The notes under the pieces are model-generated. The model was given only the letters and a program-made list of their open reading frames with translations. It was not told where the DNA came from and did no database searches. A DNA stretch of 64,000 nucleotides from Escherichia phage SUT_E420. Location of the stretch: sequence record OQ990039, one strand, 5' to 3'. Made by a program: the position numbers and the translations under genes. The number at the start of each line of letters is the position of its first letter. The first letter of the stretch is position 1. Of this stretch, positions 7,197 through 41,583 are shown piece after piece.

Positions 7197-7699
7197 TTTA
7201 AGTATTTTTAAGAACTCTCGTAAAAACTCTTAAAAATACAGACGATACCGGGAGAGTCATAAGTCTCACTCATTAAGTATTTCAAGACAAAATACAGTAA
7301 CGTCTATTATTTTCCAGTTTAAGTCAGGGTGACTTAGTGGTTATGTCCTGCGGTATATTGAGGACTCGGTTAGGCTTGGGGTCATGACTTCCCACCTTTT
7401 GCTGCTACTCAACAGGAGTTATCGCGAATTACCTGTGCTATTGTGCACCATTAGTGACATCTCTCATGTCAGCATTTCCCACTTTGTGGATAGCTTGAAA
7501 AACTACTCCGATATGGAGAAAGAACTTCACTATCCTAGAATACCTTCTAAAGTTCTTCTTTAGCCTGGACATAGTTAAATCGTAATAAAACTATTCAGCA
7601 GACTGGTTGGTTAGTCTGGAACCAACTACCGCGTGGTTTAGGCAGTGCGCAACTAACCTCGGAAGCTTTTATGTTAAAAGCATCAGTTATCCAGTTCTT

Positions 7700-7770
7700 A
7701 CCGACCGTAGGATTCGAACCTACATCTTCCACCAGTTACGGCTTGATAATACCAATTATACTAGGACGGC
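7700..7770 (-). ncRNA. tRNA-like element (T-arm and acceptor present, no anticodon stem)
   Basis: Perfect T-arm GTAGG-TTCGAAT-CCTAC, 3' acceptor GGTCGGT, D-loop GG, but no foldable anticodon stem and no encoded CCA; possibly the 3' module of a longer structured RNA. Confidence 0.3.
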
Positions 7771-7993
7771 AGTGTTACTACATAAGTGATTTCCACACCC
7801 CACTATTTATAAATCAGAGAAGAGTTTAGGGGAGAGGTTTCAGACGCCTCATTTTACACGTTCTAGCCACTAACCGGGATTGCCGCCCCCTGTGTACTAG
7901 TTTTACAACTAACCCACCGACTCTATTCAATGCGCTCCGGTTGGGATTCTGCACTCAGCGTAATCGGCTCGCTGTTCCCTAATTTATGAATAT

Positions 7994-8022
7994 ATTATAC
8001 AGAATTTATAAGCATTTAGCAA
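7994..8022 (-). promoter_or_regulatory. sigma70-type early promoter (minus): -35 TTGCTA, 17-bp spacer, -10 TATAAT
   Basis: Plus strand ATTATA-N17-TAGCAA; transcribes leftward into the 790-bp non-coding region 7197-7993. Confidence 0.7.
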
Positions 8023-8030
8023 ATGAATTT

Positions 8031-8465
8031 TTAGAAAAATTCACTAGCAATCAAAGCAGTTGTTTTACCGTCATAACGTCCGGGAAATTCTGCCTTAATA
8101 GTTTTCATTAATAGAGCTTTGGTAATACCTGGGTTTAATTTAACCAGTTCTGCAAAATACTCACGAATCTGAACCTCAGTCAGTTGACTTGGCTGATACT
8201 CTTGCAGCATGGAATAAAGCAGTTGCTCATAGTCTACATCAGTAGGAACTTCCATACCAACTTTAATAGCGCGTTGTTTTGCATTTTCTAGAGCCTTAAT
8301 CTGAGCTTTCAGATAGGCTACGAACTCGGTTCGAGTAACAATGTCTTTATCAATACGTTGCAGATCACCAATCATGGTCTGAAGATTAAGTGCCCGTTCC
8401 TTATCACCGTGAGTACGTGCTAGACTAAGTAGTCCACGAAGGGTCATTAGAATATTTTCACCCAT
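8031..8465 (-). CDS. hypothetical protein (144 aa)
   Basis: ORF in track; start overlaps the stop of the upstream small ORF (TAATG); no motif. Confidence 0.45.
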   Translation of the reverse strand: MGENILMTLRGLLSLARTHGDKERALNLQTMIGDLQRIDKDIVTRTEFVAYLKAQIKALENAKQRAIKVGMEVPTDVDYEQLLYSMLQEYQPSQLTEVQIREYFAELVKLNPGITKALLMKTIKAEFPGRYDGKTTALIASEFF

Positions 8466-40151: not shown

Positions 40152-41500
40152 AGGTTGTTATATCTAATAAAGCCTATTTCAAGCCCGATGATGAACTTTG
40201 GGATTATTGTAGTAAGCAAACCACTTATCACATAGAGACAATGACTAGTAAATACCCTATTATGTATAAGAATAGTGGTGTTGTTGCTAAAGAGATTAAG
40301 TGGATTCCTATCACGCGTCTGGATTTATTAGATGCTAAAGGAGTAAAATACGAATTAGTAGATAAACGTACATTAGCTCCGGTAGATATACCAAAACCTA
40401 AGTTCAAGCTGCGTGAAGAAGACCAGCTCCCAATATATGAAGAGTGCGATGATACCTGTATTATTAATGGTAAGCCTGGGTTTGGTAAAACTATCCTAGC
40501 CCTTGCACTTGCGTATAAATTTGGCCAGAAAACTTTGGTAATCTGTACGAATACATCCATTCGTGAAATGTGGGCAGCAGAAGTTCGTAAATGGTTTGGG
40601 TTTGAACCGGGCATTATAGGTTCTGGGAAATACAATATTGATCCACCAATTGTAGTCAGTAATATTCAAACAGTGAATAAACATGCGAATAATCTTTCTA
40701 AAGTATTCGGTACTGTTATAGTTGATGAAGTTCACCATTGTGTGGCTACAACTTTCACCAACTTCCTAGAAATATCATGTGCTCGCTATAAGATTGGACT
40801 ATCTGGAACATTAAAACGGAAAGATGGTCTACAAGTTATGTTCAAAGATTTCTTTGGATATAAGATCTTTAGCCCACCGGTTAATAATACTGTTGCACCT
40901 ACAATCCATAGGTACTCCGTGCCTGTTGAGTTATCAGGAAACCAAAACGTACCATGGGCATTACGTGCTAATGATGTGTATAACCATCCTGAATATCGAG
41001 AGACTATTATAAACTTAGCACACTTATACGTGAATATGGGGCATAAAGTACTCATTGTAAGTGACAGAACAGAGTTAATCCAAACAGTACTAGAAGCTCT
41101 CGCACAGCGTGGTGTTACAACATATGAAATTATAGGGGCAACCCACTTGGATGACCGATTAAAAATTCAGGAAAATATAGCAAAAGGTGGGCCTTGTGTA
41201 CTTGCAGCAGCTCAAAGTATCTTCTCTGAAGGTATTTCCCTTAATGAGCTATCTTGTTTAATAATGGGGAGTCTCATTAATAATGAATCTCTCATTGAAC
41301 AGCTTGCAGGACGTGTTCAACGTATTGTCGATGGTAAACTCGACCCTATTGTTGTAGATCTAATTATGAAAGGTGGCACTGGACTAAGACAGGCTTCTGG
41401 ACGTATGGCAGTATATCGTAACAACGGGTGGAAAACTATTACCATGACTCCTGAGAAAGCAGTTCAATTAGCTAAAATTGCATTTGGCAACAGCTCATAA
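40148..41500 (+). CDS. SF2 DEAH-box helicase (T5 D10-like)
   Basis: 450 aa; Walker A GKPGFGKT, DEAH box VIVDEVHH, C-terminal helicase motifs. Confidence 0.7.
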   Translation: MKVVISNKAYFKPDDELWDYCSKQTTYHIETMTSKYPIMYKNSGVVAKEIKWIPITRLDLLDAKGVKYELVDKRTLAPVDIPKPKFKLREEDQLPIYEECDDTCIINGKPGFGKTILALALAYKFGQKTLVICTNTSIREMWAAEVRKWFGFEPGIIGSGKYNIDPPIVVSNIQTVNKHANNLSKVFGTVIVDEVHHCVATTFTNFLEISCARYKIGLSGTLKRKDGLQVMFKDFFGYKIFSPPVNNTVAPTIHRYSVPVELSGNQNVPWALRANDVYNHPEYRETIINLAHLYVNMGHKVLIVSDRTELIQTVLEALAQRGVTTYEIIGATHLDDRLKIQENIAKGGPCVLAAAQSIFSEGISLNELSCLIMGSLINNESLIEQLAGRVQRIVDGKLDPIVVDLIMKGGTGLRQASGRMAVYRNNGWKTITMTPEKAVQLAKIAFGNSS

Positions 41501-41512
41501 ATGATGTATAAT
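41484..41512 (+). promoter_or_regulatory. sigma70-type early promoter (plus): -35 TTGGCA, 17-bp spacer, -10 TATAAT
   Basis: Overlaps the end of the helicase gene; followed by the family leader. Confidence 0.6.
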
Positions 41513-41583
41513 ATATACATAAATTTGAGAGAGAAAGTTTCGGATTGATAAGAAAGTCCGAAGCAGAAAAATAAAAATTTTAG

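Follow-up and report, generated by a model that had tools for sequence, protein, structure and literature searches.

The minus-strand stretch 7197–7987 of the window analysed here, 64,000 nucleotides (nt) of Escherichia phage SUT_E420 (record OQ990039), is by its sequence a T5-type RNAX, an entity already known, of about 790 bases. Our comparisons show it to be a real, conserved, promoter-driven and non-coding RNA made of several structured modules. We read it, with a probability of about 0.6, as a large, early RNA that would act in trans and that carries an apparently non-decoding mimic of a transfer RNA (tRNA).

The window belongs to Tequintavirus, and its positions 7100–8050 are 100 % identical to Escherichia phage T5_ev212 and several further T5-like phages. 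In the GenBank record of T5 (AY543070), positions 40848..41566 on the minus strand are entered as the misc_RNA rnaX/RNAX, "stable RNA with unknown functions", and the same label is found in DT571/2, DT57C and Salmonella phage 5; records NC_047749, NC_027356 and AJ604531 have it too. The region is 93–100 % identical to the stretches annotated in these four phages. Over the parts shared with AY543070 40848–41566 the identity is 91–99 %, the flanking genes are identical in kind, and in both phages the locus lies between promoter P16-17 and tRNA-Arg. The original prediction, made from the letters of the window alone, had proposed a comparison with other Tequintavirus genomes, and this comparison identified the stretch as a homologue of annotated rnaX/RNAX. 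Its suggestion of a small stable RNA of T5-type phages was right as to the stable RNA but not as to the size, as RNAX is a large one (719 nt in T5). The T5 version lacks a 5′ domain of about 150 nt that is present in the window, whereas the window version lacks an 82-nt insert of T5 RNAX. The T5 annotation gives no structure and states no function, and in the literature and databases searched we found no publication on RNAX and no structure, family model or mechanism for it. Other annotators have labelled the internal element tRNA-OTHER, tRNA-Pseudo-TAA, tRNA-Ser or tRNA-Sec, or have placed small open reading frames (ORFs) over the region. Seven smaller stable RNAs are entered in the tRNA region of the T5 record (RNAI, RNAIII, RNAIV, RNA1, RNA2, RNA2H and RNA3). 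Like RNAX, they are early transcripts of the tRNA region and stable RNAs of unknown function, several of them noted as 'tRNA-like', but they measure 73–172 nt, while RNAX is 4–10 times larger and multi-domain.

The transcription unit consists of the following features:
7994–8022, minus strand: early sigma-70 promoter (TTGCTA, 17-nt spacer, TATAAT), the counterpart of the T5 'promoter P 16-17'
7197–7987, minus strand: RNAX transcript, about 785–790 nt, non-coding
7122–7196, minus strand: tRNA-Arg(UCU) with encoded CCA, directly 3′ of RNAX
7087–6140: SPFH/Band-7 gene, downstream of tRNA-Arg

The promoter (8022 to 7994) matches the consensus at 10 of 12 positions and is placed directly past the stop codon of the gene at 8031–8465. 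The claim that it fires leftward into a region free of ORFs was confirmed, as the longest ORF in 7197–7993 has 60 amino acids (aa) and the substitutions show no period-3 pattern. Among about 24 distinct close relatives, the variable columns of 7197–7826 are distributed 53/61/61 over the three codon phases, against 217/18/40 and 85/16/33 in two flanking genes. The 5′ part has 10- and 15-nt insertions among the variants, and the indels are not multiples of three. As there is no codon periodicity, the RNAX region is non-coding, and hidden small ORFs were rejected on the flat phase test together with the frame-breaking indels. The 5′ end of RNAX was inferred from the promoter and the T5 annotation, whose equivalent is at about window position 7980, and the 3′ end was set at the base preceding tRNA-Arg, again following T5. 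No terminator-like site was found on the minus strand before 6116–6086, so the primary transcript is expected to run through the non-coding stretch and to continue through tRNA-Arg and the SPFH/Band-7 gene. A cassette of about 55 nt containing the promoter (window 7975–8033) is repeated at 78–87 % identity before neighbouring early genes, with further copies in locus L001 at 45–96, 4554–4607, 5395–5447 and 6716–6773. This recurring cassette is the T5 early-promoter family.

The best defined part of RNAX is a tRNA-like cloverleaf mounted on a stalk:
7699–7770, minus strand: tRNA-like cloverleaf without anticodon and without CCA (Rfam match and covariation)
7770–7764 and 7706–7700, minus strand: acceptor strands of the cloverleaf, GCCGUCC (5′) and GGUCGGU (3′)
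7761–7746, minus strand: D arm, with GG in the D loop
7742–7731, minus strand: mini-hairpin GCC-GUAACU-GGU
7723–7707, minus strand: T arm GUAGG-UUCGAAU-CCUAC
7776–7771 and 7699–7696, minus strand: invariant internal-loop strands AACACU and AAGA; the first AAGA base is the discriminator A, 7699
7777–7790, minus strand: 5′ strand of the P1 helix, AUCACUUAUGUAGU
7682–7695, minus strand: 3′ strand of the P1 helix, ACUGGAUAACUGAU; conserved C.C and G.G mismatches
7791–7806, minus strand: near-invariant, single-stranded leader motif AUAGUGGGGUGUGGAA (AUAGUGGGGUGYSGAA), with no pairing partner established
7665–7681, minus strand: hairpin P2, GCUUUU-AACAU-AAAAGC

The Rfam tRNA model (RF00005) matches 7699–7770 on the minus strand with 35.5 bits (gathering score 29; E 1.7e-5 for the region and 9.7e-4 for the window) and scores 33–38 bits in relatives. 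This match is reached only by skipping 18 nt at the anticodon arm as a local insertion. The T arm, 3′ acceptor strand and D-loop GG noticed earlier are all present, as are the elbow nucleotides (G18G19 and the T loop), and the earlier failure to see a canonical anticodon arm also holds. Instead of the canonical 5 base pairs (bp) and 7 nt, the anticodon position has a 3–4 bp stem (GCC/GGU, GGC/GCC or ACC/GGU) with a 6-nt loop, GUAACU in the window. In Klebsiella phage Sugarland the arm is a long helix with a GCUA cap, and in Pectobacterium phage DU_PP_V it has 5 bp and a CUAG tetraloop. The tRNA finders did not resolve a canonical tRNA: ARAGORN called none at the element in the window, and its calls in relatives were inconsistent, selenocysteine (SeC)(UCA) in loci L007 and L008 and Ser(ACU) in T5 and DT571/2. 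All 11 genuine tRNA genes of the window encode CCA, whereas the element runs on as A-AGA into a trailer that pairs with the leader, leaving neither a free CCA 3′ end nor an unpaired trailer. As it has no anticodon loop and no CCA acceptor end, the domain can probably neither decode nor be charged.

Pairs were counted on an explicit model in alignment A1, which holds 27 distinct sequences. The T arm is 100 % paired with 2 covarying pairs, the D stem has two compensatory pairs, and the acceptor stem, with 7 positions, is 83.5 % paired and also has two. Acceptor pair 1–72 is G.U or G.A (G1.U72 in the window), and pair 5–68 is mostly a U.U mismatch. The original prediction had found no 5′ acceptor partner; GCCGUCC at 7770–7764 is that partner, in a 7-position stem with the G1.U72 pair and the U5.U68 mismatch. 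RNAalifold on the same alignment revealed P1, in which 14 nt upstream of the cloverleaf pair with 14 nt downstream of it. P1 has 12 pairs, 99.7 % paired, and 6 of the 12 are compensatory. In DU_PP_V nearly every base of P1 is changed (AUUGAUCACGUAAC / GUUAGGUGUUUGAU) and the pairing is preserved, and this phage also retains the G.G mismatch of P1, the AACACU/AAAGA loop, G1.A72 and U5.U68. The internal loop between P1 and the acceptor stem is invariant, AACACU on the 5′ side and (U/A)AAGA on the 3′ side, and hairpin P2 has two covarying pairs (CG to GC; UA to CG or AU).

For the combined leader-cloverleaf-P2 model, 91.6 % of cells are paired against 32–43 % with slid partners, compensatory changes occur at 16 of 38 pairs, and not one of 500 shuffles was as good, which places the tRNA-like element far beyond chance. 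The pairing of leader and trailer in P1 puts the cloverleaf on a stalk, and the flanks of the tRNA body are more conserved than the body itself. These data show that the domain keeps the acceptor/T-arm stack and the D/T-loop elbow, and that it is, as far as comparison of sequences can tell, selected as a shape and not as a decoder. The module of a longer structured RNA proposed earlier is therefore there, but it is 5′-proximal on a covarying leader/trailer stalk and not a 3′ module; it lies about 210–290 nt from the 5′ end of the ~790-nt RNA, not near the distal end. Neither is it simply a degenerate tRNA, since arms and flanks are under structural selection. Several candidates for further features were rejected. 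RNAalifold proposed that the leader AGUGGGGUG pairs over a long range with CACCCUGACU, but this fails in DU_PP_V, which keeps the leader and swaps the CACCC loop on the same local hairpin. A long-range helix GUUGCG/CGCGAU is unsupported, as its position 4 is G, A or U without compensation, and a start-stop mini-ORF AUGUAG in P1 is not conserved.

The remainder of the RNA is divided into further modules:
7827–7987, minus strand: optional 5′ domain; its ~150 nt at 7827–7975 are not in T5 and DT571/2-type phages
7606–7641, minus strand: conserved block CUAAACCACGCGG, then hairpin GUUGGUU-CCAGACU-AACCAAC; weak covariation, one compensatory pair
7455–7471, minus strand: hairpin UGACAU-GAGAG-AUGUCA; compensatory changes AU to GC and GC to CG
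7372–7397, minus strand: palindrome-loop hairpin, loop AGUCAUGA(C); the closing stems covary
7345–7365, minus strand: hairpin GUCCUC...GGAC, of variable length; GC-GAAA-GC instead in Klebsiella phages
7308–7344, minus strand: 3′ motif block, AUAACCAC, hairpin AAGUCA-CCC-UGACUU (7335–7321) and AAACUGGAAAAUA
7240–7305, minus strand: 3′ junction domain, closed by AGACG/CGUCU
7202–7239, minus strand: terminal 'hairpin A', 17 bp, A/U-rich, UACG loop, no U run after it

The 5′ domain contains the hairpin CAGCG-AGCCGAUUA-CGCUG (7974–7956), which is CAGCA...UGCUG in Pectobacterium and Proteus phages, and the conserved blocks UGAAUAGAGUCGGUGGGUU (7929–7911) and CCCCUAAACUCUUCU (7832–7818). The leader of T5 and DT571/2-type phages follows the promoter at a distance of 41 nt. 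The loop palindrome AGUCAUGAC (GUCAUGAC at 7388–7381) was present in every one of the 46 distinct RNAX sequences, which come from four clades. The sequence of the 7308–7344 block is invariant in enterobacterial lineages, while DU_PP_V keeps the hairpin of this block with another loop and T5 has two copies of it. Each lineage closes the 3′ junction domain with a helix of different sequence, and hairpin A is more than 90 % conserved as far as Klebsiella and Pectobacterium phages. For the 3′ half, alignment A3 (22 sequences, from which the structure was itself derived) gave 10 compensatory pairs in helices 4, 7, 8, 9 and 12, and we place weight only on these compensatory counts. Four hairpins and a closing helix have such changes, among them the hairpins at 7471–7455, 7397–7372 and 7365–7345 and a helix of the 3′ junction domain. 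G.U pairs make up 10–13 % of paired cells, and scoring the opposite strand lowers the paired share from 91.6 % to 81.8 % in one case and from 99.5 % to 86.9 % in the other. As G.U pairs would mismatch there, the minus-strand RNA is the folded species. The compensatory changes show that the modules are kept as separately folding units, at least on the predicted structures.

Within the RNA (7197–7990, minus strand) GUGGG is found four times where shuffles predict 0.6, GGUUAGU is found three times, and two related copies of AARGUGGGAA-N-UGAC lie at 7401–7381 and 7488–7468. These repeats suggest internal duplication or possibly repeated binding sites. A CsrB-type sponge for CsrA was rejected, with 11 GGA observed against 12.2 expected in shuffles. 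Neither the 3′ motif nor hairpin A is repeated elsewhere in the window. The 3′ motif AGTCACCNTGACNNNAACTGGA was also seen outside any RNAX (L064 11187–11208, L061 4366–4387 and L065 4415–4436): in a 97-kb viral contig it stands between an ORF and a terminator-like hairpin, and in two overlapping small contigs right upstream of a ribosome-binding site. Such copies are either chance or an independent element.

Altogether 525 phage records match the RNAX region. Homologues of 0.56–1 kb were found in Markadamsvirinae, Sugarlandvirus, Mccorquodalevirinae and Novosibvirus, with 558–905 nt from leader to terminal hairpin, and the comparison shows that RNAX is kept, as a predicted RNA of this size, in at least four Demerecviridae clades. 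No host or plasmid homologue was found in 5,426 complete E. coli genomes or in PLSDB. The RNAX of DU_PP_V (Mccorquodalevirinae), which lies upstream of tRNA-Arg(UCU), measures about 1 kb and has a promoter of the same type. In Novosibvirus, Proteus phage VTCCBPA139 carries, again upstream of tRNA-Arg(UCU), some 780 nt of non-coding RNA in which the 5′ hairpin and the GUCAUGAC loop recur and a degenerate tRNA-like element retains a T arm. With covariance model R1 the P1 module of this phage reaches 61.5 bits (E 1.5e-11); it is tipped by a plain hairpin, and the modules of the RNA follow one another in a different order. In GSW6, EPS7 and SpoonbillGilly-type phages an unrelated hairpin replaces the tRNA body while P1 and the flanks are retained; the P1 module of GSW6 and EPS7 reaches 85–89 bits. 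The central part of RNAX is exchanged between lineages. T5 RNAX has its 82-nt insert between two copies of AGUCACCUUGAC...AAACUGGAA.

Some observations on individual loci belong here. In L004 (T5, ~1560–1700) and the metagenome locus L070, the insert is flanked by two AGUCACCUUGAC(U/A)UAAACUGGAA copies, which look like a duplication or recombination scar. In some Epseptimavirus (L007 1773–2255; L053 1436–1918) an ORF of about 160 aa separates the promoter from the RNAX leader, and RNAX is separated from tRNA-Arg by ORFs of 170 aa or of 76 and 91 aa. At 112–136 of L066 (the 223.7-kb contig IMGVR_UViG_3300028549_000563), a T arm, 3′ acceptor strand and AAGAGCU at an ORF end resemble the Klebsiella-type RNAX trailer.

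In the reading that we favour, a cut by RNase P at the 5′ end of tRNA-Arg would free RNAX just past the 17-bp UACG-capped hairpin, which would then protect the 3′ end of the RNA. Such protection could explain the annotation as 'stable', and an origin of the 3′ end by RNase P is suggested by the T5 annotation, which ends RNAX exactly at the tRNA. The released RNA would act in trans as a folded scaffold. Its tRNA-like domain may offer a handle in the shape of a tRNA to a factor that recognises the elbow or the acceptor region, the candidates being the adjacent YqeY-like protein, RNase P and the ribosome, and the palindromic loop AGUCAUGAC is a candidate site of self-association (kissing) or of protein binding.

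The first of these candidates is encoded by the neighbouring gene:
8031–8465, minus strand: stand-alone YqeY-like protein gene, upstream neighbour (PHROG 1460, annotated 'tRNA amidotransferase')

A profile built from seven homologues aligns with B. subtilis YqeY (1ng6) from end to end (E 0.002), and a related-locus search with the YqeY-like protein alone returned 7 close relatives only. Homologues (L078 4798–5247; L079 8239–8649) lie near RNAX in three clades: one adjoins it in the Proteus phage (35 % identity), and in DU_PP_V (41 % identity) one small ORF stands between the gene and RNAX. YqeY-like tail domains of GatB and GatE have been implicated in recognition of the tRNA D loop, and one YqeY-like domain enables productive tRNA binding by a GlnRS (PMC2811023). 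The protein is a possible partner of RNAX. Next to its gene, the segment 8465–8635 (minus strand) encodes a 56-aa protein with a full-length DUF7616 match of 113 bits.

Several points weigh against our reading. The trans-acting role is one that we only infer, and the stability of RNAX is as stated in the depositor's GenBank note. The modules are deleted, replaced or permuted between phages, so a string of independent elements fits as well as one integrated machine, and T5 itself does without the 5′ domain. Folding of the complete RNA (794 nt) gives a minimum free energy that is not unusual (z = −0.9), although this value is uninformative, and the 3′-half structure was tested on its own source alignment. 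The covariance models of GOLLD and ROOL, two families of large phage RNAs, gave no match at E up to 10 (window 7000–8100) or E up to 1 (six diverse homologous loci). As for the YqeY-like protein, Pfam YqeY scores 18 bits, below its cut-off of 27, so the assignment is weak; Sugarlandvirus lacks such a neighbour beside RNAX; and the adjacency is itself weak evidence because Demerecviridae genomes are broadly syntenic.

The most serious competitor, which we consider possible and distinctly less probable than a trans-acting RNA, is a cis-acting processing leader. The region would be the 5′ leader of an RNAX/tRNA-Arg/SPFH precursor, with P1, its asymmetric internal loop and the 17-bp terminal hairpin as processing or stabilising signals for RNase III and RNase P, the tRNA-like body as one 'upper stem', and the RNA without a function of its own; the early RNase III sites of T7 are a parallel. 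The position fits well, directly upstream of tRNA-Arg(UCU) in Tequintavirus, Mccorquodalevirinae and Novosibvirus, and co-transcription with tRNA-Arg and the SPFH gene is expected from the lack of a terminator. P1 may be tipped by a cloverleaf or by a plain hairpin, and the modules are shuffled as cassettes. Moreover, an invariant U precedes G+1 with 6 unpaired bases ahead, and an invariant U with an unpaired stretch makes a good RNase P context. However, 0.56–1 kb of RNA with invariant loops (AGUCAUGAC in 46/46, AACACU/AAGA and UAGUGGGGUG) exceeds what processing needs, RNAX stays intact in Epseptimavirus despite the ORFs that separate it from tRNA-Arg, and the GenBank note terms the RNA stable.

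We consider three other explanations very improbable. A decaying tRNA pseudogene in a neutral, deletion-prone spacer would account for the degenerate anticodon arm, the U5.U68 and G1.A72 mismatches, the missing CCA and the tRNA-Pseudo label of some annotators; the closest T5 tRNA, tRNA-Ile2(CAU), is identical at 55 of 72 bases, and the T5 tRNA region is a hotspot of viable deletions (PMC12483538). But the acceptor, D, T and P1 helices are kept by compensation across clades whose neighbour proteins share 35–41 % identity, the flanks are more conserved than the tRNA body, and the same mismatches (U5.U68, and G.G in P1) are kept in DU_PP_V, which indicates selection and not decay. That the element is instead a working but unusual decoding tRNA (an opal suppressor or SeC-like in Epseptimavirus, Ser-ACU in T5) could be argued from the Rfam scores above the gathering threshold and the ARAGORN calls in relatives. 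We think it just as doubtful, as the called anticodon varies by lineage and there is no call in the window, the arm is a 6-nt loop on 3–4 bp, a tetraloop or a long capped arm, CCA is lacking and the 3′ trailer is paired to the leader, and several phages dispense with the body. The perfect inverted repeats and palindromes (AAGTCA-CCC-TGACTT, GTCATGAC and hairpin A) and the duplicated motif bordering the 82-nt insert of T5 could also point to an element acting as DNA, such as a replication origin, nick site, operator or recombination site. Yet the G.U pairs, 10–13 % of the paired cells, would turn into C.A in a DNA cruciform or on the opposite strand, the region is read from a strong promoter dedicated to it, and GenBank records an RNA.

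We compared RNAX, still taken as a trans-acting structured RNA, with several known systems. Rfam, searched at the gathering threshold on the window and with relaxed E-values on the region and six relatives, returned the tRNA model only; a weak plus-strand match to Hrs13 was disregarded (19 bits vs 52). The earlier dismissal of a transfer-messenger RNA (tmRNA) was correct, as ARAGORN found none, Rfam gave no tmRNA match at E up to 10, and both acceptor strands lie within 72 nt. The tRNA-like domain of tmRNA and the bacterial Y-RNA-like YrlA keep the acceptor/T-arm and the elbow, with the anticodon arm lost or replaced, and the remaining RNA exits from the anticodon-arm position. RNAX shares the first trait, but its remaining RNA exits at the acceptor end via P1, and it has no CCA, no G3.U70, no tag ORF and no Rfam or ARAGORN match to them. 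In the eukaryotic MALAT1/mascRNA arrangement, a long non-coding RNA contains a tRNA-like element that signals processing by RNase P. RNAX is likewise a long non-coding RNA tied to tRNA shapes whose ends RNase P could define: tRNA-Arg lies at its 3′ end, and G+1 of the internal domain may be a site of RNase P cleavage; unlike there, leader and trailer are paired, so cleavage would not free the tRNA-like domain.

GOLLD and ROOL are phage RNAs found near tRNA islands and seen as nanocages by cryo-electron microscopy; GOLLD has a conserved part and a variable 5′ part, with tRNAs sometimes in a linker region (PMC12286853). RNAX is similarly phage-encoded, lies beside tRNA genes, measures 0.6–0.9 kb and has many conserved helices and an unknown function, and its optional 5′ domain and embedded tRNA-like domain recall the variable 5′ part and the linker tRNAs of GOLLD. 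It differs in its enterobacterial hosts, in modules shuffled between phages and in failing their covariance models. Oligomerisation is a property of GOLLD and ROOL, and for RNAX a conjecture from one palindromic loop, GUCAUGAC. RNAX thus seems loosely analogous to both in kind and is a member of neither. A bolder version of this analogy, which we offer as speculation, is that RNAX represents a Demerecviridae-wide class of 'ornate' RNA absent from Rfam, a counterpart of GOLLD and ROOL that might form a defined particle, either a homo-oligomer via the AGUCAUGAC loop or a ribonucleoprotein with the YqeY-like protein. It might then display an anticodon-less tRNA domain early in infection to the translation or tRNA-processing machinery, or to a tRNA-directed host defence.

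Elsewhere in the window, 3240–3314 (minus strand) is a tRNA gene missed by ARAGORN, with an Rfam score of 40.3 bits and a CCA end. It adjoins tRNA-Ser(GCU) and corresponds by position to the T5 tRNA-Ile2(CAU).

T5 is a classic model phage, and RNAX stands on its map as a stable RNA of unknown functions. The tRNA region of T5 has been tied to counter-defence, with PARIS and retron systems cited (PMC10644984), and to the triggering of DRT9 (PMC12483538). To the known RNAX we add the P1 stalk, the cloverleaf without anticodon and CCA, the invariant palindromic loop and the conservation in four clades with shuffling of modules. If RNAX is only a processing leader, it would still be an unusually elaborate one. 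If it is a trans-acting particle, phage RNAs of the GOLLD/ROOL type would extend to enterobacterial phages, and the structure described here makes the question of its function directly testable in a tractable system.

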